DNA of 64,000 bases from Patescibacteria group bacterium (GTDB lineage: Bacteria > Patescibacteriota > Microgenomatia > Levybacterales > UBA12049). Under the pieces are notes generated by a model. That model searched no databases, was not told the origin of the DNA, and was given only the letters and a program-made list of their open reading frames with translations. The translations under genes were made by a program, and so were the position numbers. The first letter of the stretch is position 1. Each line of letters begins with the position of its first letter. Below, piece by piece: positions 23,501 through 63,933 of this stretch. The DNA is taken from contig DASYZL010000006.1 of the NCBI GenBank assembly GCA_035946335.1, positions 1,772 through 65,771 of the forward strand. The letters run 5' to 3'.

Positions 23501-23502
23501 AT

Positions 23503-25004: not shown

Positions 25005-25112
25005 AGGTAATGGAATGGTAACACATAGTATCCCTCAAATCAACCATTTTTGAAGCCAAAAGGATACTGACAGTTGGTTTTGATTAAAATAGTAGCTTGC
25101 TAATCTTGAAGA

Positions 25113-25325: not shown

Positions 25326-25759
25326 CCACTTCGTTTACAGACTTGGACAGTGATTTGGATTGATATGGTAATCCAATCTTGACAAGACAATAAATTTGTT
25401 TTAATCTTTAATTAGGTCCCTAGTGACCCACATGGTTTGATTTGTCACAATAGTCCTATCCTCAAAAATTAGCGACTCGACTGTGCTAGTACCTACAGAT
25501 TTCTGAAAGGTTTTAGCTTGTCGAGTTTTTTTATGAGCAGCCTTTCAAGGCTGTTTTTTGTAGCAACTGGGGAGACTATTTGTGCAGGTTATCCGTTTAT
25601 GTTCCCTGCTTGGTTCTCCCCAGGCAAGGAAGATAAACGGATTTTTTATGTTATCAAAAGAAGCTGTGCTGGAGTATCAAGAAGAATACAGAAAAATACA
25701 TGGCAAAATCATCTCTTTCGATGAAGCGATGAGGCAAGCAGAAGAATTACTTAAATTAT

Positions 25760-26191: not shown

Positions 26192-26249
26192 TAGTACTTA
26201 TTGATGATTAATATAATGGTAACTGACAGTAACCACTATGTGTTAAAAT

Positions 26250-28016
26250 ATGGCATTTTTTGATTACAATTTGAAGGAAAAATTACAAGAATATAAATTC
26301 GGTGCGTATTTACGACGTTCTTCGGAAGACAATGAAGATAAGCAAGTACGAAGTATTGAGGGACAACAGCAAGACCTTCAAGAAGTCAGCACAAAACTGC
26401 GTTTATCAAAACTGAAAAAATATGATCCCGAAAGTAAGTCTGCATTCAAAATCGGTAGACCAATTTTTAGTCAAATTATACAAGATATTGAAAATGGAGT
26501 TATTGACGCATTACTTGTTTGGCATGCAAATCGTATTTCACGAAATTATGGTGATGGTGGAAAATTTGTGCAGTTAATGTCTGAGGGAAAATTAAAAATT
26601 GTTTTAACACCTTTTGGAGTTTTTGAAAATACTCCGAGAGACATGGAATATCTCATGAATGAATTTACTCGTGCGACTAGGGACAGTGGAGATAAATCAG
26701 ACGCAGTAAAACGAGGAAACCGTATAAAATTAAAAGCAGGTTATATTCCTAGTGGCAGACTATCAGAGGGCTACGATCATGTTAAAAATGAGCGAGGTGA
26801 ATCAGTAAACGGCACTAATAGTAATTTCACATTACTAAGGAAAACAATTGAGTTGGTGTTAAATGGAACGCATACACCAATGGAGGCATTGGATGTATTA
26901 AATAATGAATGGAAATATCAGACAAGAAAAACTAAAAGATTAGGAGGGAAATCACTCGCAAAAAGCACATTTTATCGTCTGTTATCGAATCCAAAATCGT
27001 ATGGTCTCATTATTAGCGCAGAAGGAGAATTTACCGCTGAGTTTCCCCCACTAATGACAAAAGAAGAATATGAGAAAATACAAATACTTCTTGGTAAGAA
27101 AGCAGGCAGAAGAAGAACTCCAAAAACGTGGGCATATACAGGTGAAATTACTTGCGACAGCTGCAGTGGATTTATAACAATGGAAGATAAATGGCAAGTT
27201 ATTTGTCCTGTTTGTAAAACAAAATTCCATAAATCCTCGGATAGATTTGCTTGTATAAATTGTCATACTCCAATAGAGGAAATGAGGAATCCAAAACTTC
27301 TTCATTATACTTGGTTGCATTGCACACGGCAGAAACTTGCAGATGGAACCAAATGCAGGCAACCGTACCTCGCTGTTGATAATTTCGATGGACAAGTCCA
27401 AAGCCTCATTGAAAAATTTACTATTCCAGAAGGATTTGCCAAATGGGCAATTAAATGGTTAGAAAAACTAAACGATCAAGAAGTACAACAAAGAACAGTA
27501 ATAAATACTAATCTCCAAAAATTTCATAATGATGTTCAAAAACAGATTGACGATCTGTTGGACTTACGATTAAAAGGACTTATCGACGATGCAGAATATC
27601 AAAAGAAGAAAGAAACGCTACTTCTGGAAAAGAAGGAGGTAAACCAAAAATTACAAGTTACTGATAAGCGAGCAGATGAATGGTTAGACCTATGTGAGAA
27701 TACGTTTAATTTCGCTACTTATGCGCATATATGGTTTGCCAAAGGAACGACTAATCAAAAACGTGCAATACTTCATGCACTTGGATCGAACCTAATATTA
27801 AAAGATAAAGTTTTATTGATACAACAAGCTAGACCATTTATGCTACTTGCTGGAACGAAAGAAAAAGTAGGAATTAAATTGCAAACAATCGAACCTAACG
27901 ATCAGCTTGATGTAGTAGCCCAAAAGCTCGGTTCTGAGGCTTCCAGTCTTGACTTGCTGCCGAGCAGGGATTCGAACCCCAATAAACAGATCCAGATTCT
28001 GTTGTCCTACCATTAG
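26250..28016 (+). CDS. Large serine recombinase (resolvase/invertase-type catalytic domain + recombinase domain + zinc ribbon + coiled coil)
   Basis: N-terminal YLRRSSEDNEDKQVRSIEGQQQ (catalytic Ser region). Cys cluster CDSC...CPVC...CINCH (zinc-ribbon recombinase domain). Coiled-coil C-terminal region. The 3' end overlaps the tRNA-Gln on the opposite strand. Confidence 0.85.
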   Translation: MAFFDYNLKEKLQEYKFGAYLRRSSEDNEDKQVRSIEGQQQDLQEVSTKLRLSKLKKYDPESKSAFKIGRPIFSQIIQDIENGVIDALLVWHANRISRNYGDGGKFVQLMSEGKLKIVLTPFGVFENTPRDMEYLMNEFTRATRDSGDKSDAVKRGNRIKLKAGYIPSGRLSEGYDHVKNERGESVNGTNSNFTLLRKTIELVLNGTHTPMEALDVLNNEWKYQTRKTKRLGGKSLAKSTFYRLLSNPKSYGLIISAEGEFTAEFPPLMTKEEYEKIQILLGKKAGRRRTPKTWAYTGEITCDSCSGFITMEDKWQVICPVCKTKFHKSSDRFACINCHTPIEEMRNPKLLHYTWLHCTRQKLADGTKCRQPYLAVDNFDGQVQSLIEKFTIPEGFAKWAIKWLEKLNDQEVQQRTVINTNLQKFHNDVQKQIDDLLDLRLKGLIDDAEYQKKKETLLLEKKEVNQKLQVTDKRADEWLDLCENTFNFATYAHIWFAKGTTNQKRAILHALGSNLILKDKVLLIQQARPFMLLAGTKEKVGIKLQTIEPNDQLDVVAQKLGSEASSLDLLPSRDSNPNKQIQILLSYH

Positions 28017-28027
28017 ACGACTCGGCA
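27957..28027 (-). tRNA. tRNA-Gln (anticodon CTG)
   Basis: Reverse complement reads TGCCGAG-TC-GTCTAATGGTAGGAC-A-ACAGAATCTGGATCTGT-TTAT-TGGGGTTCGAATCCCTG-CTCGGCA. It has a 7-bp acceptor stem, anticodon loop AUCUGGA (CUG) and a GGTTCGAATCC T-loop. CCA is not encoded. Confidence 0.7.
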
Positions 28028-50109: not shown

Positions 50110-51327
50110 TTACTTTTTCTTTTTCCAGATTATTTTATTGTAAATAAGATAATTCATCGGGATGACGATAAAGGCAATGGTCGGCACAAGAATAATGTCC
50201 CTTGTGGGAATATGGAATGAAAAAATGGTTGTTGCTGGTCCGAAAGCAAGTACACCAATCCATATTGCCAGAAACTGGACAATAACCGCACCGAATGATG
50301 TCAGGTTGAAGGTAATACCCCTTTTGATAGTTTGGAAAATATTACTGTGTGCCCTGTCGTGAAATGTCCACAGGTTATTAAGTGTAAAATTAAAGAGAAT
50401 CGCTCCTTCAGCCCCGATTCCTGCAGCGACACCGTTAGCAAAAGCAACAGTATCAGATGTATGGACAAGAACTGTAAGTAACGGATGCAAAAGCACGGCA
50501 AGAAAGGACGCAACCCCTGTATAATAGGATCCTTCCTGCAAGGCAAGTTGGATTATAAACCCTGTTCCTCCCACTATAAGAAATTTAATAAACCGTTCAA
50601 ACTCTTTCAAACGGGTAAAAATAACAAACCGCAACACATCCATAATGTAACTGAAGGAAGCAATCTTTGAGCTACCCAGTTTCCTGTCTGAAAAATGCAA
50701 AGGAACTTCCCCGATTTTATATCCATCCCGTACTGCCTTATGCAAGAATGCTATCTGAAAAATATATCCGCCGAAATTTGCCATCTCCGGACGAACTTTC
50801 AGAAATACCTCTTTCCGTATAGCACGAAACCCCCCTGTCCAGTCATGAATGCTGAATTTTGTAAAGACGGTTCTCACAAACAGGTTAGCAGTAATTGAAA
50901 ACATCTTTCTTTGTAACGGCCAGTTTTCAGGAATAGAACCGCCCCCGCTGTAGCGAGTCTGGATGACCATATCATATCCCTCATCTATCTTCTTTACAAA
51001 CTTCACGATATCATGCGGGTCAAACTGAAAATCCGCATCAATTTCTATAACTACGTCCGCTCCTCTCTTTTCTATTGCTTCCCCCATAGTGCGAAGATAC
51101 GCTGCGCCTAATCCTTTTCTCTCTCCTTGATTCATATCAAGATTTTTATATTTCTTCATCAAACTCTTTATAATGTCGCCAGTCCCGTCAGGAGAATAAT
51201 CATCCGCAACAAGAATGTACATCTCGTGATCTTTTATTCTCGGGAACACTTCTTCTTCCAGAACGGTAATAAACTTTTCAATATTATCTTTTTCATTGTA
51301 TGTTGCAGGAATTACAAAAATTTTCAT
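50110..51327 (-). CDS. GT2 polyprenyl-phosphate sugar synthase (DPM1-like) fused to GtrA-like membrane domain
   Basis: N-terminal IPATYNEKDNI...LVADDYSPDGT (GT2_DPM-like, DxD-type) and a C-terminal 4-TM GtrA-family region. Confidence 0.8.
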   Translation of the reverse strand: MKIFVIPATYNEKDNIEKFITVLEEEVFPRIKDHEMYILVADDYSPDGTGDIIKSLMKKYKNLDMNQGERKGLGAAYLRTMGEAIEKRGADVVIEIDADFQFDPHDIVKFVKKIDEGYDMVIQTRYSGGGSIPENWPLQRKMFSITANLFVRTVFTKFSIHDWTGGFRAIRKEVFLKVRPEMANFGGYIFQIAFLHKAVRDGYKIGEVPLHFSDRKLGSSKIASFSYIMDVLRFVIFTRLKEFERFIKFLIVGGTGFIIQLALQEGSYYTGVASFLAVLLHPLLTVLVHTSDTVAFANGVAAGIGAEGAILFNFTLNNLWTFHDRAHSNIFQTIKRGITFNLTSFGAVIVQFLAIWIGVLAFGPATTIFSFHIPTRDIILVPTIAFIVIPMNYLIYNKIIWKKKK

Positions 51328-52286
51328 ACCGTCTTAAAATATTCTATTGTTTTTTGTAGTCCTTCTTCAAGGGGAACTTTTGGCTCCCAGCCTAACAATT
51401 TTTTCGCTTTAGAAATATCCGGACAACGCCTGTTCGGATCATCCGCTGGTAATTCCTCAAACACAATTTGTGAAGATGACTTTGTTAGTTTTTTGATAAG
51501 TTGGGCAAATACTTTAATAGATCTTTCATTCGGATTTCCAAGATTGACTACTTCTCCATTTATATTCTTTGTAAACATGAGTTTCATAAGCCCTTCAACC
51601 AAATCAGAAACAAAGCAGAAAGAGCGTGTTTGCTTTCCTTTTCCATAGATCGTCAGGGGTTCATTGTGTAGCGACTGTAAAATAAAATTGGAAACAACCC
51701 GTCCATCATCATTTTGCATATGCGGCCCGTAGGTATTAAAAATTCGCGCAATACGGGCATCCAGAGAAAACTTCCGTACGTATGCTATTGTTATCGCTTC
51801 ACCAAACCGCTTCCCTTCGTCATAGACCGACCGGATACCATTGGGATTCACGTTTCCCCAATAGGTTTCAACCTGTGGTGAAACTTTCGGATCACCATAT
51901 ACTTCAGATGTAGAGGCGTATAGAAATCGTGAAGACATTTTTTTTGCAAGGTTTAACAGGATATAGGTTCCCTGCGAATTGACACGGAGTGTTTCAATTG
52001 GATAGCTCATATAACTGCGCGGACTTTTCAGGTTCGGAGAAGCTGGAGAGGCAAGGTGAAAAATATATTGCGGAAGAGGAATATGCTCAAAATCATGCTC
52101 AGTAAGCAGTAAAATATCTTTCTGTAAAAAATGAAAGTGAGCATTTGAAAAAAACGGATTGATATTCTTTTTACTGCTCGTCAGAAAGTTATCGATACAA
52201 ACAACTTCATATCCATCAGCAAGCAACCGCTTGCATAGATGTGAACCAATAAATCCTGCGCCACCCGCAATGTATACGGTTTGCAT
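51324..52286 (-). CDS. UDP-glucuronate decarboxylase (UDP-xylose synthase)-like SDR
   Basis: GGAGFIGSH Rossmann motif, catalytic YDEGKR, and DNF...F pattern typical of UXS/ArnA-decarboxylase. ATGA overlap with the GT2 gene. Confidence 0.75.
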   Translation of the reverse strand: MQTVYIAGGAGFIGSHLCKRLLADGYEVVCIDNFLTSSKKNINPFFSNAHFHFLQKDILLLTEHDFEHIPLPQYIFHLASPASPNLKSPRSYMSYPIETLRVNSQGTYILLNLAKKMSSRFLYASTSEVYGDPKVSPQVETYWGNVNPNGIRSVYDEGKRFGEAITIAYVRKFSLDARIARIFNTYGPHMQNDDGRVVSNFILQSLHNEPLTIYGKGKQTRSFCFVSDLVEGLMKLMFTKNINGEVVNLGNPNERSIKVFAQLIKKLTKSSSQIVFEELPADDPNRRCPDISKAKKLLGWEPKVPLEEGLQKTIEYFKTV

Positions 52287-52335
52287 ACAAGCATTATAGA
52301 AGGAAAATATAGTTTATGCAAAGGAGGAGTATATA

Positions 52336-53055
52336 TTATTTTGTTTCCGATTTTTGTAAAAGTGAGAGTACTTGCATTACTGCTTCAGAGTGAAAGAGTA
52401 CTTTATGATGTCCTTTTTCATGAATACGGATATTCTCAGCTCCTTGCAAGTAACTACCACTTGGGATGTGGTTATCAAATTCCGGAAAAATAGAAACAAT
52501 TTGGCCATTCACTTCCTCATGTGACTGAAGTTCGCGGATCACCTCACTTCCTGGAAGCAATTCTTTAAATGGGGTAAATGGTACTACTCCTGCAACAGGC
52601 GAGCCGGAAAACGGCGTTGCAATCGCTATCAATGTATCTATCCGACCATCTTCATTATCATGAACTAAAAGATATTTTCCAATCAAACCGCCTTTACTAT
52701 GTGCTATAAGTACGACATGATTGAGATTGTTCTTTTCTATTACTTCACGCGTAATCCTTGCTGAATCCTGAATTGTATGGAGATTGTCACCCAAACTCGG
52801 AACTACGTAGACCGCATGCCCTGCTTGAGAAACTGCGTCTCCGATCTTTCTGAGAAAACCCCACCGTTCAATGATACCAGGCAGAAGAATAACCGGAGAT
52901 TTACCTTCTTCATGCTCAAGATAATAGCTCGGTGGTTTAGGAGAAAGATGAGACCGTAGTTGTTCTGTCAAGAGACGAGTATAATCGGAGGTCCAAACTT
53001 TTATTTTTTCCATAATTCCCATATGTATGCATGGTTTATAATACAAAAGGTGCAA
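52336..53055 (-). CDS. Alpha/beta hydrolase (esterase/lipase-like)
   Basis: GxSxG nucleophile elbow AHSKGG. ~240 aa. Confidence 0.6.
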   Translation of the reverse strand: MHLLYYKPCIHMGIMEKIKVWTSDYTRLLTEQLRSHLSPKPPSYYLEHEEGKSPVILLPGIIERWGFLRKIGDAVSQAGHAVYVVPSLGDNLHTIQDSARITREVIEKNNLNHVVLIAHSKGGLIGKYLLVHDNEDGRIDTLIAIATPFSGSPVAGVVPFTPFKELLPGSEVIRELQSHEEVNGQIVSIFPEFDNHIPSGSYLQGAENIRIHEKGHHKVLFHSEAVMQVLSLLQKSETK

Positions 53056-53269
53056 GCATCTTGGATTGTTTCATGTACGACTTATTCACATTGTCAAAGT
53101 GTTTCACAAGCAATTCTTCTTCATCTTCTGCATGGTAACAACCCTAGAGACAAAATTTGAGTAAGACATATTACTAGACTAACATAGCAATATATCTCTC
53201 GCAATACGTGGTTGTGACAAAATAGGGGTGGAAATTCTATTTCGCGTATGTTACAGTTATAATCATTCT

Positions 53270-54268
53270 ATGGGCAAGAAGGCACTGATTGTTGGTGTTT
53301 CCTCACAAGACGGTTCATATTTGGCGGAATTTTTGCTTGACAAAGGGTACGAAGTTATAGGCACAATCCGCCATTCCACAAATTTTTACCAGGAAAATAT
53401 CTCTCACCTGTATGGGAAAATTGCAATCAGAGCAGCTGATGTCATTGATGGAGAAAGCATTGCTGATGTGGTAAAACACTATAAACCTGATGAAGTATAT
53501 AATATGGCTGCACAATCAATTCCTGCAGACAGTTGGACACATCCGTTCTACACCGGTGAAGTAACAGCATTGGGGCCTGTACGGGTTTTAGAAGCAATAA
53601 AACATCATGCACCTAACGCCCGGTTTTATCAAGCAACCAGTCGCGAAATCTACGGCAATGTCAGTGGAACTATTACTGAAGAAGCGGCATATGATGCAAA
53701 CAACCCGTATGGGATTGCAAAAGCATATGCACATATGATGACACGCTGCTACCGTGAGTCATTCGGGATTTTTGCGTGCGGAGGCATTCTCTTTAATCAC
53801 GAGAGTCCACGGCGGAGCCTACATTTTGTCACACGGAAAATTTCTGCAGGTGTCGCGTGTATCAAAAACAAGGTAAAAAATCCACCCCTTAATGAACTTG
53901 GAGAACCATTAATTAAAAATGGTAAATTGCATATGGGAGATTTGGACAGTATGCGTGATTGGGGGTATGCAAAGGAATATGTTGAAGCGATGTGGCTCAT
54001 GCTGCAGCATGAGAAACCACAGGACTATGTTATCGGGACGAATACCTCTTATGCTGTCAGGGAAGCATGCCGGCTTGCCTTTGCACATGTAGGACTGAGC
54101 TGGGAAGATTATGTTGTGTCTGATAAACGGCTATTCAGACCTACGGAAATTAAGCATTTAAAGGGTGATTATACAAAAGCAAAAAAGGAATTGGGCTGGG
54201 AACCGAAAACGTATCTTGAAGATTTAATGAACTTAATGGTTGATGCTGATTTAGAGCGATTTACGTAA
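53270..54268 (+). CDS. gmd: GDP-mannose 4,6-dehydratase
   Basis: KKALIVGVSSQDGSYLAEFLLDKGYEV...RHSTNF matches the GMD N-terminus. Start placed at Met MGKKALIVG. Confidence 0.85.
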   Translation: MGKKALIVGVSSQDGSYLAEFLLDKGYEVIGTIRHSTNFYQENISHLYGKIAIRAADVIDGESIADVVKHYKPDEVYNMAAQSIPADSWTHPFYTGEVTALGPVRVLEAIKHHAPNARFYQATSREIYGNVSGTITEEAAYDANNPYGIAKAYAHMMTRCYRESFGIFACGGILFNHESPRRSLHFVTRKISAGVACIKNKVKNPPLNELGEPLIKNGKLHMGDLDSMRDWGYAKEYVEAMWLMLQHEKPQDYVIGTNTSYAVREACRLAFAHVGLSWEDYVVSDKRLFRPTEIKHLKGDYTKAKKELGWEPKTYLEDLMNLMVDADLERFT

Positions 54269-54293
54269 GCACCTTTTTATCATATATGATAAG

Positions 54294-54938
54294 ATGAAAC
54301 GCGCTAATCATACGCCGCTTGTCCCTTTACACATTCTCCAAACGTTTACCGTTCCCGCTGATGCAAAACAATCAAATAAACTGCTGGATACATTTCAAAA
54401 GAAATGGAAACAAGAACATGGTGGAAAGAAAGGGATAGCTTTTGCTCCTTTCCGTGGACAACCTTGGCATCCCGGCCATGTACACGTGATACAAGCAGCA
54501 CTCCTTATTGCAAACCAGCTAATCATCGGCATTGGGAGTGCAAATATAAGCAGGACCGACGAAAACCCCTGGACAGCGAACGAGAGAAAAACTATGCTCA
54601 TTGATTTACTGAAACGGGAACAGATTGACAGGAATCGTATTCGTATTATTACCATAGATGATGATCCAAGCGATGATATCTGGTTACAAAAAACGCTTGA
54701 AAAAACGGGAAAACAGATAGATGTCGTTGTCAGTAATAATGAGTGGGTAAGTAGCATTTTTCAAAATGCACATTACGTAACACAAACAGTTCCGTTTCTT
54801 GGCGGAACATTACCTAACGGAAAAGCATACGAAAAGCGGATTAAAGCAGAAGAAATCAGAGCGTTTTTACGTGAAAAGGGATATCTACCGTCGTTTGAAA
54901 AAAATCAGAATACGGGAAGCCTGGCAATAACAGCGTAA
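54294..54938 (+). CDS. Cytidylyltransferase-like nucleotidyltransferase (NMNAT/NadM-like fold)
   Basis: (H/T)xGH-type motif: GIAFAPFRGQPWHPGHVHVIQ. ~214 aa. Confidence 0.5.
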   Translation: MKRANHTPLVPLHILQTFTVPADAKQSNKLLDTFQKKWKQEHGGKKGIAFAPFRGQPWHPGHVHVIQAALLIANQLIIGIGSANISRTDENPWTANERKTMLIDLLKREQIDRNRIRIITIDDDPSDDIWLQKTLEKTGKQIDVVVSNNEWVSSIFQNAHYVTQTVPFLGGTLPNGKAYEKRIKAEEIRAFLREKGYLPSFEKNQNTGSLAITA

Positions 54939-54945
54939 ATATACT

Positions 54946-55434
54946 ATGGATTACCATAAGTCTGTTGAGCAAATTATTCGCTTATTGGAATCGCACGATT
55001 GCTGGTTTGAGTCGTTTGAACATGAACCGGTCGTCACGTGTAAAGAAGCAGTAAAAACCCGTCCTGGCTATACGCTTGAACAAGGGGTAAAAGCGTTAAT
55101 TATCCGGGCAAAAATTCCTCATATTGGCAAAAAATTTGTTATGATTGTTTTTCCTGCCCATCAAAAATTTGATACTAAAAAAGTAAATCGGGTATTAAAC
55201 ACAAAAGATATTCGTTTTGCTACAGTTGACGAAGTATTACAACTCACAGACGGAGTACAACCAGGAGGAATACCACCGTTTGGCAATATCTTTTCTCTAG
55301 AAATCATTGCGGACAAAACACTATTTGAACAGGAGAAGATTGTTTTTAATGCAGGAGACCGGCGGTTTTCTCTTGCAATAAAATCAGAGGATTATCTCAA
55401 AACGGCTAAGCCTCGTATCGAAAATATTATTTAG
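54946..55434 (+). CDS. YbaK/ProX-type aminoacyl-tRNA deacylase domain protein
   Basis: ...GGIPPFG... and overall size (162 aa) match the YbaK/ProRS-associated deacylase family. Confidence 0.6.
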   Translation: MDYHKSVEQIIRLLESHDCWFESFEHEPVVTCKEAVKTRPGYTLEQGVKALIIRAKIPHIGKKFVMIVFPAHQKFDTKKVNRVLNTKDIRFATVDEVLQLTDGVQPGGIPPFGNIFSLEIIADKTLFEQEKIVFNAGDRRFSLAIKSEDYLKTAKPRIENII

Positions 55435-56391
55435 CTACTGTTTCCTCCAATATGCTAATACATCCTGTAATGATTTCTTCAAAGGGATTGTTGTCTTCCA
55501 TTCCGTGAGTTTCTTCATTTTTGACGGGTCACAAACAAGTTCAGGATTATCACTGGGACGAAGCAGTGATGGATCTTGTGCAACAGTAATTTTTACTGTG
55601 CTCATAGCTAAAAGCATGTCCAAAACGTCTTGAATCGCATATTGTTTTCCTGAACCGATATTATAGACGTCTCCTGTTTGTCCTCTTTCCATTAACAAGG
55701 CGTATGCTTTTACCATATCCCGGACATCAGTGAAATCCCGTTTTGCTTCCAGATTACCAACGCTGATAACCGGCTTCTGTTTTCCCTTTTCAATTAACGC
55801 AATTTGGCTTGCAAAATCCGCTATTACAAACCCTTTTGTCTGCCTGGAACCAATGTGGGGGAACGGACGGACACGGATAATTGGTTGACGATAGGAAAGA
55901 AAGTACTGCAGCCCTAAAAAATCCTGAGCAATTTTTGAAACCGCGTAAGGATTTGCAGGACGGAGTGGTGTTTCTTCATCAATCGGTAAATCTTCTTTCT
56001 TTACATACCCGTATACTTCTGCCGATGAAACAAGCAGCAGTTTTGTCTTTGTCAAGTTCTGTTTTCGTACACTCTCCAGCAGGAAAATCTCAGCATCAAT
56101 GTTATTGTGAAATGTTTCGGAAGGATTAACAAAACTATTTCTTACTGATGACGATGCTGCAAGATGGTATATTTCGTCAAGTTTTTTTGTAGTAATAAGT
56201 GCATTAACATCATGCTGATGGGTTAAATCAATCCGGACAAGATCAAGTTTTTTTTCTATTGCAGAAACATTTTTCAAACTTTTTTCAGCTAAAAATGTAC
56301 CGGTAATATGCACATTACCTGTGTTTACAAGCAGTTCAGCAAGATGGCTTCCGGCAAAACCGGTAATACCGGTGATGAGAATATTTTTCAT
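55435..56391 (-). CDS. NAD-dependent epimerase/dehydratase (extended SDR; possibly GDP-4-keto-6-deoxy-D-mannose reductase-like)
   Basis: ILITGITGFAGSHL Rossmann motif and Y...K catalytic pair. Sits between gmd and ugd. Confidence 0.7.
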   Translation of the reverse strand: MKNILITGITGFAGSHLAELLVNTGNVHITGTFLAEKSLKNVSAIEKKLDLVRIDLTHQHDVNALITTKKLDEIYHLAASSSVRNSFVNPSETFHNNIDAEIFLLESVRKQNLTKTKLLLVSSAEVYGYVKKEDLPIDEETPLRPANPYAVSKIAQDFLGLQYFLSYRQPIIRVRPFPHIGSRQTKGFVIADFASQIALIEKGKQKPVISVGNLEAKRDFTDVRDMVKAYALLMERGQTGDVYNIGSGKQYAIQDVLDMLLAMSTVKITVAQDPSLLRPSDNPELVCDPSKMKKLTEWKTTIPLKKSLQDVLAYWRKQ

Positions 56392-57686
56392 CGTCCGACC
56401 CCGACATAGATAAATCCGATGTCTTGCATTTTCGAAGGATCATAGATATTTCGTCCGTCAATCAAGGTATTCCCTTTCATCAAGCTCTTCATTTTCTTCA
56501 TGTCCAGCTGCTTGAATTCACTCCATTCTGTAATAAGGAGCAATACATCAGTCTCTTTTGCTGCTTCATATGCATCATGACAAAACGAAAGTCCTGAAAA
56601 TTCCGGAAGCTTTTTTGCATTATTTATTGCAATGGGATCATACGCTTTAACTATTGCGCCCAATTCAAGCAGTTTAGGAATAATAATACGAGATGGTGCA
56701 TCACGCATATCATCCGTATCAGGCTTAAAGGATAAACCCAATACGCCGATTGTTTTCCCTTTTACATTACCCTGAAGTGCTTTACGAACCTTTGTGACAA
56801 TTGCTAACATTGCCTGCCTGTTAATTTCTTCCACATCTTTCAACAGGGTAAAGTCATAATTATAATCTTTTGCAATAGCAATAAGTGCTTTAACGTCCTT
56901 GGGGAAACAACTTCCCCCCCAACCAGCACCAGCATATAAAAAGCTATTACCAATTCTTTTATCAAAACCTACACCTTTCAAAACCTCTGGACCATTTGCA
57001 CCAGTCAATTCAGAAAGTTGCGCAATGGCGTTAGCAAAGGAAATTTTCGTTGCAAGAAATGAATTTGCCGCGTATTTAATCATTTCCGCAGTTTCGATAT
57101 TAGTAAGCACAAACTCGCCATCAATCGGCTTATGGAGTTCAATTAGCACTTTTTGCGCTTTGTCTGATTCAGTCCCGATAACAATTCTGTCTGGATGACG
57201 TGTATCGCTAATTGCCTGACCTTCACGCAAAAATTCGGGACAGGAAGCAATATCAAACTCTACTTTTTCCGTCTTTTCCTTTTCAATAATCGCTTTGACT
57301 TTTCTATTTGTCCCAATCGGCACGGTACTTTTTGTGATGACAACAGTGTAGCCGTCAAGGTGTTGTCCAATTTTTTCTGCAACTTCAAATACGACTGATA
57401 AATCTGCTTCGCCGGTTGGTTTTGGTGGCGTACCAACTGCAATGAAAATAACATTAGATGCAGGAATAGATTCTGTATAGTCAAGAGTAAACAATAACCG
57501 TCCTGCTTTCACATTTCTGATAACCAATTCTTCCAATCCTGGTTCATAAATCGGCAGGATACCTTTTTTGAGGTTTTCAATTTTTTCCTCTGTATGACCA
57601 ATAACCCATACGGTATTTCCTAAGTCAGCAAATACTGCTGCAGTTACTAACCCAACATATCCATGACCAACAAATGTTAATATCAT
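56388..57686 (-). CDS. ugd: UDP-glucose 6-dehydrogenase (UDP-glucose/GDP-mannose dehydrogenase family)
   Basis: N-terminal GHGYVGLVTAAVFADLG NAD-binding motif. Catalytic Cys in GGSCFPKD. 432 aa. Confidence 0.85.
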   Translation of the reverse strand: MILTFVGHGYVGLVTAAVFADLGNTVWVIGHTEEKIENLKKGILPIYEPGLEELVIRNVKAGRLLFTLDYTESIPASNVIFIAVGTPPKPTGEADLSVVFEVAEKIGQHLDGYTVVITKSTVPIGTNRKVKAIIEKEKTEKVEFDIASCPEFLREGQAISDTRHPDRIVIGTESDKAQKVLIELHKPIDGEFVLTNIETAEMIKYAANSFLATKISFANAIAQLSELTGANGPEVLKGVGFDKRIGNSFLYAGAGWGGSCFPKDVKALIAIAKDYNYDFTLLKDVEEINRQAMLAIVTKVRKALQGNVKGKTIGVLGLSFKPDTDDMRDAPSRIIIPKLLELGAIVKAYDPIAINNAKKLPEFSGLSFCHDAYEAAKETDVLLLITEWSEFKQLDMKKMKSLMKGNTLIDGRNIYDPSKMQDIGFIYVGVGR

Positions 57687-58564
57687 AAGGTAATTTGTTT
57701 CTTTATTTCTTGTAATCCTTCGTCAAACGAGTGAAGTCTTACGCCGAGTGTCGCTATTTTAGCACTATTTAAAGATAAATTAAATGGACGTTTTGCACGG
57801 TTTTTAAAAAATGCTTCCCTGGTTGTCTTTTCAATTAAATCCTTATCGAGACCAAATACCTCTGCAACTTTCACCGCAACATCATACGGATTGACTGGCT
57901 GCGAGCTTCCGGCATGAAAAATCCCTGTTGCTTGTTTCTTGATAATCGCATCGAAAACGCCTGCAATATCATCAATGAATGTTGGCGTATAGTAATGATC
58001 TACGACTGCTTCTATGTGTTTCCCCTGTTGCAACAGAGAGAGAAAGATCCGTACATATTCTTTTTTTTCAAAGTTTGCCCGGTACGGATAGGCGATGCGG
58101 ATTATTGTCCACGGAATACGCGCTTGTTCGACAACTTTTTCTCCCATATATTTTGTCATTGCATACCAGTTAACCGGTCCCCGCTCATCTGTTTCATTAT
58201 ATGTTTGCCCAAGGGGTTTATCACCGGGAAACACCATATCGGTTGAAATATAGATCAATTTCTTTTTTGCTCTTTCACAAGCGTTAACAACATGTTGCGT
58301 TCCGGTAACGTTAATTTGCCAAGAAAAACTTTTTTCTTTCAAATCTTTTTCTTGTTCTGCTCCCTCAACATCAGTATATGCAGCCATATGAATAACATAC
58401 TCAGCACTTGACGGGACAATCCGATTGATAACTGCTTCTCTATCGGCAATATCAATTCCCGTTTTTCGACTGATATCTTCAATTTCATAGGCATCCTGCA
58501 ATAACGCAACAGCTCGTGAACCGACAAGTCCTGAAAAACCTGTTCCAATAAGTTTTGTTTTCAT
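57683..58564 (-). CDS. rfbD: dTDP-4-dehydrorhamnose reductase
   Basis: RmlD-like pattern: short GxxGxxG, ...DIADREAV...HMAAYTDVEGAE..., ~290 aa. Confidence 0.7.
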   Translation of the reverse strand: MKTKLIGTGFSGLVGSRAVALLQDAYEIEDISRKTGIDIADREAVINRIVPSSAEYVIHMAAYTDVEGAEQEKDLKEKSFSWQINVTGTQHVVNACERAKKKLIYISTDMVFPGDKPLGQTYNETDERGPVNWYAMTKYMGEKVVEQARIPWTIIRIAYPYRANFEKKEYVRIFLSLLQQGKHIEAVVDHYYTPTFIDDIAGVFDAIIKKQATGIFHAGSSQPVNPYDVAVKVAEVFGLDKDLIEKTTREAFFKNRAKRPFNLSLNSAKIATLGVRLHSFDEGLQEIKKQITL

Positions 58565-58615
58565 ATATTCTTGTTATTTATTCTTAACGAAAACGATACC
58601 AAAAAATGAAGATTC

Positions 58616-58906
58616 TTAAGATATGTATTTATCTCCTAGAATACTCGGCGCTTTGATAACGATAAATTCTGTATCATCTCCTGTTGCGAATTCCTCAATA
58701 ACTGTTTGTGGATACACGACCCAAAAATCTCCTGCATAAGCAATTTGTTTTATCCCATTTGCCAGAAACGTTGCGCTGCCCTTCAGAACAATCGTAATTT
58801 CAACTGCTTTTTTGTGATAGTGTTTATCCTCAAAAGAAGGCTTTTTATTACCAATATGCTGCCAGGCAACTTCAACGAGTGACGATTTTAACAACGGTTC
58901 TTCCAT
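58616..58906 (-). CDS. Small cupin-fold protein (possible sugar epimerase/isomerase-like)
   Basis: 96 aa with a beta-rich cupin-like sequence. Occupies the position where rmlC is usually found between rfbB and rfbD. Confidence 0.35.
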   Translation of the reverse strand: MEEPLLKSSLVEVAWQHIGNKKPSFEDKHYHKKAVEITIVLKGSATFLANGIKQIAYAGDFWVVYPQTVIEEFATGDDTEFIVIKAPSILGDKYIS

Positions 58907-58969
58907 AAAATCGCCAAAAAACCATTCCTTTTTCCCCGTTGCAAATCTTTTTACCGCTCCAAGAAAAAT

Positions 58970-59986
58970 TTATTTGTTGTGTCCATATTGTTTTACATAG
59001 TATTCTTTATATGATCCATTCTTAATATCCTGCCACCAATCCTGATTGTCTTTATACCATCCGACTGTTTTTTCAAGCCATGTGTCAAAATCGTATTTCG
59101 GTTCCCACCCTAATGTAGTACGGATTTTTGTCCAATCAACTGCGTATCTTCTATCATGTCCAGGCCTGTCTTTAACAAATTCGATCATACTCTCATCTTT
59201 CCCAAGCATTTGAATAATTTTCTTCACAACTTCCAGATTGTTGATGTCTTCTGTCATCCCACCAACGCAATAGGTTTCACCAATTTTTCCTTCCTGTAAA
59301 ACCCTTTCGATTGCCTGACAATGATCTTCTACGTACAGCCAATCCCGTATATAGAGTCCGTCACCATATACCGGAACTTTTTTGTTTTCCAAAAGATTTG
59401 TAACGGCAAGCGGAATCATCTTTTCCGGAAACTGAAATGGTCCAAAGTTGTTTGAGCAGTTGGTTATCGTGGCTGGGAGACCATAGGTAACAAAATATGC
59501 TCGAACTAAATGATCTGATCCTGCTTTACTTGCTGAATAAGGACTTCTGGGGTTATATGGTGTTCGTTCATAAAATTTTTCCGTTGTATCCAATGCAAGC
59601 GCTCCGAACACTTCATCAGTACTCACATGTAAAAATTTCTTTATTTTTTGCCGCAATGCAACATCAAGTAACACTTGTGTCCCGGTTACATTTGTTTCCA
59701 CAAAATCAGCTGGGTGCATGATTGACCTGTCTACATGGCTTTCTGCAGCAAAGTGCACAATAACATCAGCTCCTGACATTGCTTTTTCAACTTCGTTAAC
59801 ATCACAAATATCTCCTTTCACAAAATGATAATTGGGATTATGTTCAACTGCTTTGAGGTTTTCCAAATTACCTGCATAGGTCAACTTATCGAAGTTGATG
59901 ATGTCATCATCGGAATGGTTTTTCATCCAGAAGAGAATAAAATTTGAGCCGATAAATCCAGCTCCGCCGGTAATAAAAAGTTTCAC
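58970..59986 (-). CDS. rfbB: dTDP-glucose 4,6-dehydratase
   Basis: ITGGAGFIGSNF, catalytic YSASKAGSDHLVRAY, ~338 aa. Confidence 0.9.
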   Translation of the reverse strand: MKLFITGGAGFIGSNFILFWMKNHSDDDIINFDKLTYAGNLENLKAVEHNPNYHFVKGDICDVNEVEKAMSGADVIVHFAAESHVDRSIMHPADFVETNVTGTQVLLDVALRQKIKKFLHVSTDEVFGALALDTTEKFYERTPYNPRSPYSASKAGSDHLVRAYFVTYGLPATITNCSNNFGPFQFPEKMIPLAVTNLLENKKVPVYGDGLYIRDWLYVEDHCQAIERVLQEGKIGETYCVGGMTEDINNLEVVKKIIQMLGKDESMIEFVKDRPGHDRRYAVDWTKIRTTLGWEPKYDFDTWLEKTVGWYKDNQDWWQDIKNGSYKEYYVKQYGHNK

Positions 59987-60522
59987 AATTTTTTTTCCTT
60001 TCGCAATCTATCCAAGAGCAGTATGCCAATTATACTACTGGATGCGGTAATTTCACCATCCATAACTTTTTGCACAGCGACGTCAAGGGGAACTTTTACA
60101 ACTTCTATACTTTCATGGAGGTCGGGGTGGGGTTCTCCAAGCGTAAGACCTTTTGCCAAGAATAAATAATTTTTTGCCAGAAAAACGCTTGCTGAGATAT
60201 CAATACTTCGCAGAAATTCAAACTGTTCTGCTCGAATACCGGTTTCTTCCTGCAACTCTCTCTTTGCGGCATGCAATGGTGTTTCGTGTTCGTTGATAAA
60301 ACCAGCCATTGCTTCAAGACTTTGTTTTTCCAGAAGATATCGGTATTGTGAAACGAGATAGAGTTCATATTGATCGGTGAGAGGAAAAACAGAAACTGTT
60401 GGTTTTCGAATCGCAACATGATGCGTTACATTGTCACCATCCGAATAGGTCAATTGTACTTCATCAACATGGAATAACTTTGCGGAAAAAACTTGTTTTG
60501 TTATTTTTTTTGGCGATTTCAT
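59983..60522 (-). CDS. NUDIX hydrolase
   Basis: Nudix box ...AAKRELQEETGI.... ATGA overlap with rfbB. Confidence 0.7.
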   Translation of the reverse strand: MKSPKKITKQVFSAKLFHVDEVQLTYSDGDNVTHHVAIRKPTVSVFPLTDQYELYLVSQYRYLLEKQSLEAMAGFINEHETPLHAAKRELQEETGIRAEQFEFLRSIDISASVFLAKNYLFLAKGLTLGEPHPDLHESIEVVKVPLDVAVQKVMDGEITASSSIIGILLLDRLRKEKKL

Positions 60523-60532
60523 CGGGAAGCTC

Positions 60533-61270
60533 TTAGGAGAACAAACTGTTTTTTACTTTTTCTGCTACTAAATTATTAGCCCGCAACAACTCATCGTAGG
60601 ATGTTCCTGCATCAACCCACCAGTCCATAATACCAACTTCCATTGTTCCTTCTTTCACATAGATATTGTTTAAATCTGTTACTTCTAGTTCTCCCCGGGC
60701 TGAGGGTTTCAGTGTTTTGATGAAGCCAAAAACCCGCTCGTCATATAAATAGACACCAGTTTGGGCAAGGTCAGATTTGGGAACATCCGGCTTTTCTTCG
60801 ATGGACAATACTTTTCCGTCTCTTGTTTGTTCAATAACACCATACTGCTTTGAGTGTGTTGGCATATGCATACCAAAAACCATTGCGCCTTTTTTTCTTT
60901 TCTCAAATCGTTCAACATCAGACTTTAATGACTTTCCGAAAATACCATCTCCCAATAAAACTAATAATTTATTATTTCCTGTAAAATTTTCCGCAAGCCC
61001 TATAGCTTGAGAGATACCACCAGGTTTACTTTGAACAGTGAAATATAAATTGAGATTAAAGTCTGACCCATCTTTTAAGAGAGATGCAAATTGACCAGCA
61101 TGATCAGGAGACGAGGACAACAATACTTCCATAATACCGGCACGATGCATTGATTCAAGTGCATAGAAAATCATTGGCTTATTGTAAACCGGGAGCAAAT
61201 GTTTGTTTGTTACTGCAGTAAGCGGCCTGAGTCTGGTAGCTAATCCTCCGGCAAGAATAAGCCCTTTCAC
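60533..61270 (-). CDS. rfbA: Glucose-1-phosphate thymidylyltransferase
   Basis: (V)KGLILAGGLATRLRPLT...KHLLPVYNKPMIFY matches RmlA. Start placed at a GTG that makes a GTGA overlap with the upstream small ORF. The ORF track extends to 61327. Confidence 0.85.
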   Translation of the reverse strand: MKGLILAGGLATRLRPLTAVTNKHLLPVYNKPMIFYALESMHRAGIMEVLLSSSPDHAGQFASLLKDGSDFNLNLYFTVQSKPGGISQAIGLAENFTGNNKLLVLLGDGIFGKSLKSDVERFEKRKKGAMVFGMHMPTHSKQYGVIEQTRDGKVLSIEEKPDVPKSDLAQTGVYLYDERVFGFIKTLKPSARGELEVTDLNNIYVKEGTMEVGIMDWWVDAGTSYDELLRANNLVAEKVKNSLFS

Positions 61271-61521
61271 AAAACTCCTTTCATAACCAGCATAATAATC
61301 GCAATTCCCATGAGTGCTATCGTACAATATTCCAAAACAATTTTCAATCGAAGATCATGATGGATAACATGATGCAATATTCCCCAAAAGCAATAGAATA
61401 GCGCCATAAAGAGAACAAGAAACAGTTGCAGTAATGTATTTCCTTGCGTTTGGCTGATAGCAAGCACAACAGCCCCAAGTACACCAATTTGGCAAATATA
61501 GTATCCAAGATGTTTTTTCAT
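61267..61521 (-). CDS. Small 3-TM membrane protein
   Basis: 84 aa with three hydrophobic helices. Its stop overlaps the rfbA GTG start (GTGA). Starts 2 nt after the CAP-domain gene. Confidence 0.4.
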   Translation of the reverse strand: MKKHLGYYICQIGVLGAVVLAISQTQGNTLLQLFLVLFMALFYCFWGILHHVIHHDLRLKIVLEYCTIALMGIAIIMLVMKGVL

Positions 61522-61523
61522 TG

Positions 61524-62432
61524 TTACAATAGCACTCCGCTTCCTAGTAATGTCGCAATTAAGAGAATTGCAATTAGGAAAAGCATGTGGTCAATGTTAT
61601 GCCCTACGATTCTAATAATCTGTTTTCTGTCAATAAGAATCACATCAATCGTTAAGGTAATAATAAACATCAAAACAAGGGCCATGCCGATAAGTCGTAC
61701 CAGCAACACGCTATTCATAAGAGGTGCTCTTACTACTGCCTGCGATGATGCTTGAGGCGCAAGAGAAGGAGGTATTGTAGGCATTGGCGTTACTGTTGGA
61801 TTGGGGAAAATATAATTTTGCGCTTGCACCTGCTGCACAATAGGTGGAATCGTTTGGGGACTCTGCGCGTAGGTTCTACTTCCAAACATTTCAACGACAA
61901 GCACCGTGTTGTTGTCTCCGGTTAATGTTCCTTGCTGTACAGCAAATCCAACGTTTGTATAGTTTTTGGAAAGCATATTGGCACGATGCTCGGGACTATT
62001 CATCCATGCAGTAATCACATCAGATGCGGTTGTATAACCACGAGCAAGATTTTCTCCAGCAGTCGTGTAATGGTAACCAGCATCAGTAATAAATTGCCAT
62101 GGTGTTACCCCAGTTGGGGAAACGTGTGCCCAGTAGTTATGAAAAAACATATCTTCTGCTTTCCCTGCTGCAGCCTGGGTCAGTTGTGAGTCAATAGTTA
62201 ACGGCGAATCTCCTGCCTGTATTCTATCCTGATTGGTAAGATTGAGTAAATCCTGGGCAGAAATGTTATACGAAATACCCAGAACATCCTGGTAATTTTT
62301 CTTTACTGTTCCAACAAAAAAAGAGCCGATGAACAACGCCACAGCAATAACTAAAACGCTATCGTAGTGAAGTATTTTTGCGCGCTGATTATTGGAGTAA
62401 TGAGGAAGAAACAGATGACGAAATAATTCCAT
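61524..62432 (-). CDS. CAP (SCP/PR-1-like) domain protein with N- and C-terminal TM anchors
   Basis: CAP motifs HYTQVVW-like (NYWAHVSPTGV...) and GENLARGY. Hydrophobic segments at both termini. Confidence 0.65.
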   Translation of the reverse strand: MELFRHLFLPHYSNNQRAKILHYDSVLVIAVALFIGSFFVGTVKKNYQDVLGISYNISAQDLLNLTNQDRIQAGDSPLTIDSQLTQAAAGKAEDMFFHNYWAHVSPTGVTPWQFITDAGYHYTTAGENLARGYTTASDVITAWMNSPEHRANMLSKNYTNVGFAVQQGTLTGDNNTVLVVEMFGSRTYAQSPQTIPPIVQQVQAQNYIFPNPTVTPMPTIPPSLAPQASSQAVVRAPLMNSVLLVRLIGMALVLMFIITLTIDVILIDRKQIIRIVGHNIDHMLFLIAILLIATLLGSGVLL

Positions 62433-62494: not shown

Positions 62495-63418
62495 TTAATA
62501 TGTTGGCTCAACAGAAAATTTTCCGTCCTTAATGCTTTGACCATTTACTGGAATGTTCATAGCAAATGCAAATGCATTTGCTATTGCAACACCAACCCGG
62601 AGTCCTGTGAATGAACCTGGTCCAACCGCAACTGAAATATCTGTCAGGTCTTTTGCTGCAAGATTATGTTCTTTCAGCAGTTCGTCAATCATCGGTAAAA
62701 CATTTTGTGAACTTCTGGGAATAACTACTTCTTCCTTTATGTATGTTTTTCCACCAATGGCAAGGGATACAATAATTTTTTTGTTATCGCTGGTGTCAAT
62801 ATATATTATTCTTTCCCCTATAGTTTCTGATAGTTGCACATGCACAATCCCTTCTCTTAGTATTTTCCAAGGATACACTGAACAATCAATAATTGTTGAT
62901 ACGCTGCTTCCTCCACTTGGTTCAAGTAATGTAAAATCAACGAGTGATAATAAGCGTTTGTCGATATCAGCAAACGCTGAAGGCGTTTTTTCACCAGCAA
63001 AATTTGCCGATGGCGCAATTAGCGGCACACCAACTCCTTGAATCAATTGCAAAAGGATGGGATGATTTGTTTGTCGAACCGCAAGTGTTATTCCATTTGC
63101 CCGCACAATTGAAGCAACCTTTTCTGTTTTGCATGGCAGGATAATAGTCAACCCTCCTGGCCAGTATCTTTGTAGTAATTGTTCTTTAACTTCCAGAGGA
63201 ATTGGCAAAAGATAGTCTTGGGCCATTTTAACACTGTCAACAACAACCAATACTGCTTTTTCTTCAGGCCTTTTTCTGATTGCAAACACTTTTTTTATTG
63301 CTTGCTCGTCATCAATCCTACAACCAATGCCATAAACTGTATCTGTTGGAAAAATGCCAACGCCACCTTTTCTAAGTAGTTCTATGGCCCGTTGGATATC
63401 TTTTGCATGGAGTATCAT
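62495..63418 (-). CDS. Fusion protein: L-threonylcarbamoyladenylate synthase (TsaC/YrdC) N-terminal domain + TsaB (YeaZ) N-terminal domain
   Basis: YrdC signature GGVGIFPTDTVYGIGC...RYWPGGLTIIL...SAN in residues ~1-190. TsaB-like IIYIDTSDNKKIIVSLA...ISVAVGPGSFTGLRVGVAIANAFAFAMNIPV in residues ~195-300. Single uninterrupted 307-aa ORF. Confidence 0.7.
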   Translation of the reverse strand: MILHAKDIQRAIELLRKGGVGIFPTDTVYGIGCRIDDEQAIKKVFAIRKRPEEKAVLVVVDSVKMAQDYLLPIPLEVKEQLLQRYWPGGLTIILPCKTEKVASIVRANGITLAVRQTNHPILLQLIQGVGVPLIAPSANFAGEKTPSAFADIDKRLLSLVDFTLLEPSGGSSVSTIIDCSVYPWKILREGIVHVQLSETIGERIIYIDTSDNKKIIVSLAIGGKTYIKEEVVIPRSSQNVLPMIDELLKEHNLAAKDLTDISVAVGPGSFTGLRVGVAIANAFAFAMNIPVNGQSIKDGKFSVEPTY

Positions 63419-63933
63419 ATTTTTTGTATGGTTATTTTTCTCTTGTTTTCATCAAGATAAGTTAATTGTAATTGCCATGCCGACTTAGGCATATATCTTC
63501 CTAATTTTTCCGGCCACTCGATAACAGTAAGCGCAGAAGAATTCTGCAAAATATCTTCTATGCCTAAATCTTTAATTTCGTCTTCGTTTTGTATCCGGTA
63601 CAAATCAATATGATAAAAATCGTGTATGCTATCAGCATTTGTTGCTATTGCATATTTTCTCAGGATAATAAATGATGGTGAAATAATCCGCTGTTGTATA
63701 CCAAATGCTTTTGCTAACCCTTGAGTAAAACTTGTTTTGCCGCTTCCAAGATCGCCGGACAACAGTATTGTATGCCCACCTGTCACATGTTTCGCAAAAT
63801 TGTAAGCAACATGCTGTGTTTCTACAAGACTATTAGTAATAATTGCACGCGTTCGCATAGAAGATATCATTGTTTTGTATTGTAAATGTTGAGTATACCA
63901 TACACAAGGACACAAAGAATCCCTTCCCTGCAA
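63415..63933 (-). CDS. tsaE: tRNA threonylcarbamoyladenosine biosynthesis ATPase TsaE
   Basis: P-loop LSGDLGSGKTSFTQG...ISPSF typical of TsaE/YjeE. ATGA overlap with the tsaC-tsaB fusion gene. Confidence 0.8.
   Translation of the reverse strand: MQGRDSLCPCVWYTQHLQYKTMISSMRTRAIITNSLVETQHVAYNFAKHVTGGHTILLSGDLGSGKTSFTQGLAKAFGIQQRIISPSFIILRKYAIATNADSIHDFYHIDLYRIQNEDEIKDLGIEDILQNSSALTVIEWPEKLGRYMPKSAWQLQLTYLDENKRKITIQKI

Follow-up and report, generated by a model that had tools for sequence, protein, structure and literature searches.

We describe a gene that joins the first-step enzyme of the bacterial N6-threonylcarbamoyladenosine (t6A) pathway to one half of a protein from the second-step complex. 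The gene, tsaC::mini-tsaB, lies at 62495..63418 on the minus strand of a 64,000-nucleotide stretch of contig DASYZL010000006.1 (assembly GCA_035946335.1), referred to here as the window, from a Levybacteria-related Microgenomates Patescibacterium. The modification t6A37 belongs to the small set of universal tRNA modifications, and two aspects of its bacterial pathway are unsettled, namely how threonylcarbamoyl-adenylate (TC-AMP) passes from TsaC on to TsaD and what the actual contribution of TsaB is. The encoded protein of 307 residues is predicted to comprise a complete TsaC followed by only TsaB's N-terminal lobe, which we call mini-TsaB. That the gene is real and that both domains are correctly identified we consider very likely. 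As the overall best explanation, we regard it as probable that this is a bifunctional gene of the t6A pathway, tethering TC-AMP synthesis to the transferase.

According to the list of open reading frames (ORFs), the gene begins with ATG and ends with a TAA stop at 62495-62497, and direct reading of the sequence shows an uninterrupted frame with no internal stop in a window of 38% G+C. A preliminary description of this DNA, made from the sequence alone, had placed the gene at the same coordinates, to which the strand has to be added. The motifs quoted there are all present in the protein, which carries PTDT at residues 24-27, SAN at 137-139, IIYIDT at 204-209 and GPGSFTGLRVG at 266-276. An antisense ORF at 62553-63041 (plus strand, 162 residues) was rejected as a shadow of the fusion gene.

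The N-terminal part of the protein contains a YrdC-type, single-domain L-threonylcarbamoyladenylate synthase (TsaC; residues 6-199, 62822..63403, minus strand). The NCBIfam equivalog model TIGR00057 aligns residues 6-199 to its positions 9-200 of 202 with 159.7 bits against a cutoff of 123.2, and Pfam PF01300 (Sua5_yciO_yrdC) covers residues 13-190 with all 178 of its 178 profile positions (E=3.8e-46), bearing out the full YrdC domain of the preliminary description. In an alignment of 27 fused homologues, PTDT (24-27), R50, S137, A138, N139 and STxxDC (174-179) are invariant, and R48 of the R48-K49-R50 stretch is conserved in at least 90%. We take R48/R50 and S137/N139 to be the counterparts of the E. 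coli TsaC active-site residues K50/R52 and S139/N141. An AlphaFold2 model of the window protein, built on the same 27 homologues, gives this part predicted local distance difference test (pLDDT) values of mostly 93-98 in blocks of ten residues, lower at both ends. Foldseek aligns it to Sua5, TsaC2 and E. coli YrdC over 177-192 columns with root-mean-square deviations (rmsd) of 1.6-2.7 Å (Sua5 3aje, 1.6 Å over 183 columns; TsaC2 9dsq, 2.1 Å over 189; E. coli YrdC 1hru, 2.3-2.7 Å). As judged from profiles, conservation and model, the first 200 residues make up an entire single-domain TsaC with conserved active-site residues, sharing the full YrdC fold, the conserved residues and an above-cutoff score with TsaC of type 1 (YrdC).

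The remaining part, mini-TsaB (62498..62809, minus strand), was identified by profile, sequence and fold searches that all point to TsaB's N-terminal lobe, in agreement with the TsaB-like segment noticed before. TIGR03725, the equivalog for TsaB/YeaZ, matches residues 204-293 with 83.1 bits against a cutoff of 69.3, using only its positions 1-90 of 212, so the C-terminal half of TsaB is indeed missing, as had been claimed. Pfam PF00814 (TsaD/Peptidase_M22 clan) gives a partial match over residues 234-292 (E=1.5e-17), and models of TsaD/Kae1 reach just 22-32 bits against cutoffs of 208-375, over profile positions of about 47-104. A phmmer search against all Protein Data Bank (PDB) sequences aligned residues 3-95 of the segment to residues 3-94 of Vibrio YeaZ 3r6m (E=2.1e-15), followed by TsaB of E. 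coli, Salmonella, Pseudomonas and Thermotoga, with TsaD chains at only about 1e-5. In Foldseek, the segment superposes on the N-terminal lobe of YeaZ/TsaB with an rmsd of 1.3 Å over about 90 columns at 30-38% identity, the target chains being 188-230 residues long. By these scores, the domain matches of the fusion, and likewise those of the neighbouring tsaE gene, are far above chance level.

In the AlphaFold2 model, mini-TsaB has strands at 203-208, 214-221 and 224-231, helix α1 at 236-250, a strand at 260-263 and helix α2 at 271-287, and the resulting β-β-β-α1-β-α2 order over residues 203-287 is that of the N-terminal lobe of the ASKHA (acetate and sugar kinase/Hsp70/actin) fold. After α2 there is a short strand and then a 14-residue tail, NGQSIKDGKFSVEPTY, with a conserved PxY end (...VEPTY). 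The protein thus stops 14 residues past the N-lobe and does not have the two-lobed ASKHA architecture of about 200-230 residues. Since it is a TsaB homologue without the two lobes, the segment is best called a truncated TsaB variant. By homology, the C-terminal 105 residues correspond to one lobe of TsaB only, its N-terminal ASKHA lobe.

Compared with bacterial TsaB (YeaZ), a non-catalytic paralogue and partner of TsaD, mini-TsaB shares α1, α2 and the GPGSFTGxRxG motif with its tRNA-contacting threonine and arginine, and TsaB residues of about 2-94 correspond to residues 204-293 of the fusion protein. It differs in being joined covalently to TsaC, in ending about 14 residues after the N-lobe with PxY, and in lacking the C-terminal ASKHA lobe of about 100-120 residues together with the clamping helix (A113, R114, Y119 and I195-R205 in Thermotoga maritima). 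The conserved positions among the 27 fused homologues are concentrated in α1 (L241, L248) and α2 (G268, S269, T271, G272, R274, G276, N281); L241, L248, G268, S269, T271, G272, R274 and G276 are invariant and lie in α1, in α2 or in the motif just before α2. In solved structures, α1 and α2 of each N-terminal domain build a four-helix bundle that holds TsaB and TsaD together, and TsaE binds the TsaB-TsaD heterodimer only, at the end of this bundle (PMC6009658). Thermotoga TsaB touches the ribose and phosphate of tRNA C34 with T68 and R71 (PMC13276492), which are T271 and R274 in the fusion protein. From its C-lobe come R114, Y119 and the C-terminal helix I195-R205; this helix traps the anticodon loop, and its removal abolishes tRNA binding (PMC13276492). 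These anticodon-clamping residues (R114, Y119, I195-R205) are absent from mini-TsaB.

No separately encoded C-lobe was found by phmmer when four canonical TsaB C-lobes were compared with the window and all fetched loci, a search of low sensitivity for this poorly conserved lobe. Likewise, no additional full-length TsaB was detected in the sequence examined, which comprised the window, 7.4 kb beyond it and the fetched loci. A second class of short TsaB proteins was seen among the homologues (P0175, P0236, P0239, P0263 and P0266; 134-142 residues, P0239 being L090:61-489). In these, the N-lobe is followed by an insertion, and there is a basic tail of conserved sequence, PxYG-x-(E/P)P-(N/K/H)-IT-x-PKK, which may be a minimal stand-in for the tRNA-clamping C-terminal helix.

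The loss of half of TsaB, including elements essential in Thermotoga, could be read as decay, with mini-TsaB a remnant and TsaD working alone, for example as a homodimer like mitochondrial Qri7, which needs no partner (PMC4330362). Degenerate motifs do occur in a few homologues ('EKGSLTG' in P0016, 'DDNGSFTGQR' in P0101). However, the invariant residues described above are kept across proteins that are only 45-55% identical, mini-TsaB is found in hundreds of clusters with a tight length of about 100-110 residues and a conserved PxY end, and tsaE, whose product binds only the TsaB-TsaD heterodimer, is retained next door. We consider decay the least probable of the explanations weighed here.

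To place the fusion among its relatives, the best 120 matches to the fusion protein were collected from 5.8 billion proteins (NCBI, JGI, ENA and Logan). The preliminary description had suggested profile searches for similar fusions, and PF01300 and PF00814 occur together in 103 of the 120, in proteins of 280-446 residues with 45-55% identity to the fusion protein. Some of the fused homologues are present on up to 12 contigs, and they come from many independent assemblies; the named sources are Levybacteria/Levyibacteriota, Woesebacteria and Microgenomates. An identical protein, P0001, is deposited at NCBI as 'MAG TPA: L-threonylcarbamoyladenylate synthase [Patescibacteria group bacterium]' on a contig of 239,830 bp, which fits the reduced-genome context proposed at the outset, and a 12.9-kb Logan contig, assembled independently from run SRR12347820, encodes the protein as well.

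These results bear on whether the fusion in the window genome is a sequencing or assembly artefact, that is, two genes merged by an indel of 1-2 nt at an ATGA-type overlap. Such an error would fit the fact that the window protein is the only member of its cluster and that its six closest TsaC relatives (65-68% identity) are all split, the two genes overlapping by 4 nt or being separated by a small gap. Against it stand the recovery of the identical protein in two assemblies (the NCBI metagenome-assembled genome and Logan SRR12347820) and the sharing of the architecture by more than 100 other clusters. The junction itself gives no sign of a mended boundary: the linker IVHVQLSETIGER (residues 191-203; 62810..62848, minus strand) has no methionine, no ATG or in-frame stop remnant and no long homopolymer. 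The separating stop codon that the preliminary description had wished to exclude does not exist between the domains, nor does the relic of a start codon. Because a methionine at the start of the TsaB part is missing in 82 of 89 fused homologues as well as in the window protein, the fused homologues are not read-through products of the ATGA overlap. The two-domain architecture is real, and an artefact is unlikely in general; for the window genome in particular, we hold it to be very unlikely.

The closest relatives of the window have a different arrangement. The six TsaC proteins at 65-68% identity are stand-alone proteins of 191-200 residues, and in the closest loci (L002 and L004) tsaC is followed by a separate mini-tsaB of 106 residues with an ATGA overlap, in the same synteny as in the window. 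In a scan of GTDB species representatives, covering the first 600 pattern matches, at least 19 representatives of Patescibacteria type have tsaC followed by a separate mini-tsaB, and none is fused among the matches listed. Six of these gene junctions are overlaps of -4, and the others run from -1 to +71 nt; in L010, one in-frame stop codon lies between tsaC and mini-tsaB. The titles of the split representatives are Levyibacteriota/Levybacteria, Gottesmanbacteria, 'Patescibacteria group' and 'uncultured Gammaproteobacteria'. Six metagenome-assembled genomes titled 'uncultured Gammaproteobacteria bacterium' (L012, L014, L022, L023, L026 and L049) have tsaC and mini-tsaB of Microgenomates type, and their titles are probably placeholders or errors.

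A search with the TsaB part against 1.84 billion cluster representatives (50% identity; E<=1e-3) returned 23,274 matches. Among the best 150 of these, 132 are at most 130 residues long, a few are TsaC fusions, and full-length TsaB is recognisable in only three (P0245, P0255 and P0256). The best 120 matches to the L002 mini-TsaB are all 80-142 residues long and are named TsaB by the NCBI pipeline. Judging from these sequences, a mini-TsaB of about 100-110 residues is the ordinary form of TsaB in the Microgenomates group, usually encoded by a separate gene that overlaps or abuts tsaC. Since stand-alone genes for a mini-TsaB of about 105 residues are the norm of the lineage, the fusion does not account for the shortening of TsaB. 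In a rough neighbour-joining tree built from TsaC domains, fused and split forms are intermingled, and the sister group of the window is a clade made up of split forms alone. With fused and split forms interleaved and the closest relatives split, fusion and fission recur, and the TsaC fusion is best described, from gene arrangements and tree, as a recurrent and reversible state of two tightly coupled genes. When the junction was aligned at the DNA level with that of split relatives, divergence was too great (72% mean column identity, with gaps) for the fusion event to be reconstructed.

The fusion gene is preceded by tsaE, which encodes the ATPase of the t6A complex (63415..63870, minus strand; 151 residues from an ATG at 63870; PF02367, E=2.4e-35; TIGR00150, 109.5 bits against a cutoff of 60.1). 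The longest ORF starts with TTG at 63933, and the gene call of 151 residues comes from the independent Logan assembly. The protein has the TsaE motifs, with a Walker A sequence GDLGSGKT at residues 39-46 and SPSF at 64-67. As first described, the two genes share an ATGA overlap, read directly at 63415..63418 (minus strand), where the TGA stop of tsaE (63417-63415) and the ATG of the fusion (63418-63416) have three bases in common. This overlap suggests translational coupling of tsaE and the fusion, and the gene pair would be expressed from a tsaE-tsaC::tsaB' operon. Scans for promoters and terminators around the operon gave the same result as shuffled sequence.

The gene order tsaE-tsaC-tsaB' is conserved among relatives. 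On a 4.4-kb Logan contig (P0038), one ORF of 446 residues encodes TsaE, TsaC and mini-TsaB, with the start methionine of TsaC kept in frame. This single observation would represent either a further fusion or a read-through error. In T. maritima, a TsaE-TsaC2 complex has been reported (PMC5814804). The conserved gene order, the triple fusion and the T. maritima complex together argue for a functional link of the three genes.

The linker between the two domains of the fused homologues is of low complexity and varies between 4 and 49 residues. In the AlphaFold2 model of the window protein, which has a 13-residue linker, the mean pLDDT is 91.6 and the lowest-scoring block is residues 191-200 (72), with a predicted template modelling (pTM) score of 0.68; the model of a homologue with a 4-residue linker reaches a pTM of 0.69 and a pLDDT of about 91. 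Due to these pTM values and the range of linker lengths, the protein would be organized as beads on a string and not around a rigid channel like that of TobZ or HypF. Many linkers contain a short tandem duplication of the type IQN-SKF-KIQN or VKS-xKL-KVKS (examples are P0004, P0006, P0013, P0024, P0039, P0044, P0046 and P0050), which suggests growth by slippage.

Taken together, we propose the following mechanism for the tethering, towards which we lean by a narrow balance. With threonine, bicarbonate and ATP as substrates, the TsaC part would produce the labile TC-AMP. Through its helices α1 and α2, mini-TsaB would dock on a TsaD encoded elsewhere, in a four-helix bundle as in the solved TsaB-TsaD complexes, and the flexible linker would keep TsaC beside the TsaD active site, so that TC-AMP is released near its point of use. 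TsaE would then reset the complex through ATP hydrolysis, as in other bacteria; its retention in the operon suggests that mini-TsaB still supports TsaE cycling. Because TsaB's C-lobe and C-terminal helix are missing, clamping of the anticodon loop would have to rest on TsaD and the retained N-lobe contacts T271 and R274, with a partner of Pcc1-like size. That TC-AMP production and the transfer complex are physically coupled is plausible on this analysis. The route of TC-AMP to TsaD has been described as unknown, and proximity of the enzymes has been proposed (PMC10484737).

Several observations weigh against the tethering. A search for tsaD, which the preliminary description had called for, gave nothing in the 64-kb window, 7.4 kb of sequence further upstream beyond its end or any of the Patescibacteria flanks fetched (phmmer, six-frame ORFs), so the TsaD partner is assumed. 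The probe was an E. coli TsaD sequence validated on Clostridia and enterobacterial TsaD (E=1e-79 to 1e-217); in the Patescibacteria loci it matched mini-TsaB segments only. A TsaD scan of IMG/VR viral contigs for mis-binned fragments of the candidate phyla radiation (CPR) gave 11 loci, none of them CPR-like. Furthermore, the C-terminal helix that T. maritima TsaB needs for tRNA binding is missing, AlphaFold2 predicts no defined interface or channel between TsaC and mini-TsaB, and the window protein stands alone in its cluster with all its nearest relatives split. The split form is at least as common as the fused one and interleaves with it on the tree, so the fusion may give little advantage.

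The last points would also be expected if the fusion is real but selectively neutral, with translationally coupled neighbours drifting between overlapping, abutting and fused states, the two domains acting just like the separate proteins and no kinetic or channelling benefit. This is a tentative alternative that we think rather doubtful. The position of the window as sister to an all-split clade, the junctions from -4 to +71 nt, the single in-frame stop in L010, the variable low-complexity linkers and the pTM values of 0.68-0.69, which suggest independent modules, all agree with neutral drift, and the patchy phylogenetic distribution is equally compatible with a near-neutral process. On the other hand, the adjacency of tsaC followed by mini-tsaB is strict over deep divergence, fusions are repeated and one of them includes tsaE, which argues that co-expression or proximity matters; clustering of tsaC with tsaB, tsaD or tsaE is absent from most other bacteria (PMC3571937). 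Tethering also raises the local concentration even where there is no fixed interface.

A bolder version of the tethering is conceivable, which we rate as improbable. The t6A machinery of Microgenomates might be a single tethered holoenzyme, in which TsaC is held on TsaD by a TsaB reduced to its N-lobe, either covalently or, where the genes are split, by a stable non-covalent contact, with direct hand-over of TC-AMP and with TsaC or TsaD doing the anticodon clamping. If true, this would be a bacterial convergence on the Kae1-Pcc1 layout and the first natural coupling of the two t6A steps in tRNA modification.

The fusion protein was compared with known systems that combine similar modules. Like Sua5/TsaC2 (type 2), it has a second domain of about 100 residues after a linker, but there this is a SUA5 domain, an accessory of the first-step enzyme, and here it is the N-lobe of TsaB, a piece of the second-step complex. 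An identity as Sua5/TsaC2 was ruled out, as the SUA5 domain (PF03481) is absent. The resemblance raises the question of whether the C-terminal domain acts in cis on TsaC like a SUA5 domain, gating the TC-AMP site and no longer serving as a TsaD partner. The succession of TsaC, linker and an α/β domain of about 100 residues mimics Sua5/TsaC2, and Foldseek aligns the whole model to these proteins over 310-336 columns, but with an rmsd of 16-17 Å. There is no match to PF03481/SUA5 (E<=0.01), the domain is clearly TsaB by sequence and mostly a separate protein, and its conserved residues are those of the TsaD-facing helices. We judge this role highly improbable.

TobZ, HypF and Pandoravirus TsaN likewise combine a YrdC-like module with a member of the Kae1/TsaD/TsaB ASKHA clade in one chain, and in TobZ and HypF the fusion serves the hand-over of a labile acyl-adenylate (PMC9654439, PMC10484737). 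In contrast to the window protein, which has half of a non-catalytic paralogue and would rely on a separate transferase, these three carry a complete catalytic Kae1-like domain, and TobZ and HypF have a rigid inter-domain channel where no fixed interface is predicted here (pTM 0.68-0.69). A TobZ/HypF-type enzyme was ruled out, as only about 105 residues follow TsaC and no catalytic Kae1 domain with metal-binding histidines is present. Another point of comparison is Pcc1 of the KEOPS complex, a partner of about 80-100 residues that sits on the N-terminal helices of Kae1 via a helical bundle and resembles the TsaB N-lobe only (PMC6009658, PMC13276492). Mini-TsaB is of the same size, neither protein has a C-lobe, and the two presumably have the same topological role. 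Only mini-TsaB, however, is a true homologue of TsaB; Pcc1 shows no homology to it in sequence, and the likeness is functional and architectural only.

Gene fusions known in the t6A pathway include yeaZ::rimI::ygjD, yeaZ-hydrolase, alr::yjeE, kae1-bud32 and tsaC-hemK, and from them physical association has been inferred (PMC3571937, PMC4615747). Neither a joining of TsaC to TsaB nor a half-length TsaB occurs among them. A full-text literature search, with most subscription journals outside its scope, turned up no account of a TsaC-TsaB fusion or of a truncated TsaB in Patescibacteria. Both the chemistry of the fusion and its protein families are well known, and the sequences are already deposited and automatically named; the architecture appears to have been neither described nor interpreted before.

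The surroundings of the t6A genes are also conserved. The order ftsE-ftsX-x-(LTD)-tsaE-fusion-CAP, followed by nucleotide-sugar genes, is the same in the window and in contigs of 644 kb and 213 kb. The downstream neighbour of the fusion encodes a membrane-anchored CAP/SCP-domain protein of 302 residues (61524..62432, minus strand; PF00188, E=2.8e-21). A CAP/SCP gene directly follows tsaB or mini-tsaB at L002:6991-7905, L006:11132-11839, L007:10922-11902, L008:8313-9212 and on the P0140 contig, and in L008 it stays behind even where tsaE, ftsX and ftsE are inverted away. We do not count the protein among the likely components of the t6A machinery. Further downstream, nucleotide-sugar and envelope genes form a long co-directional block at 50110-61327 (minus strand), which is syntenic in relatives and encodes an RmlA-like nucleoside triphosphate transferase, a NUDIX protein, several epimerases/dehydratases, RmlD, UDP-glucose dehydrogenase and a GT2-GtrA protein.

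Elsewhere in the window, an OLD-family nuclease of 686 residues (AAA_15/AAA_21 and TOPRIM; 21440-23500, minus strand) is accompanied by a partner ORF of 172 residues (23503-24021). A large serine recombinase of 588 residues (26250-28016, plus strand) overlaps with its 3' end a tRNA-Gln(CTG) gene at 27956-28027 (minus strand). The region 21440-28027 looks like a mobile or defence island integrated at the tRNA gene. A protein of 974 residues (12168-15092, minus strand) combines a GH5 cellulase-like part (residues 73-307) with a phosphoesterase/phospholipase-C-like PF04185 part (residues 597-940), a pairing that is unusual for a reduced genome.

A whole bacterial group without the C-lobe of TsaB would be surprising for t6A specialists. 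As the fused proteins are named only 'L-threonylcarbamoyladenylate synthase', automated pipelines will score their genomes as lacking TsaB. The lineage provides a natural experiment on the role of TsaB, which is cut down to its TsaD-binding lobe and lacks the helix required for tRNA binding in Thermotoga, and likewise one on the hand-over of TC-AMP, since many of its members carry mini-TsaB covalently on TsaC. The small size of the system (TsaE of 151 residues and the fusion of 307 residues, plus TsaD) makes it attractive for reconstitution and cryo-electron microscopy. As a whole, the fusion offers Rosetta-stone evidence for the first-step enzyme working at the transfer complex.

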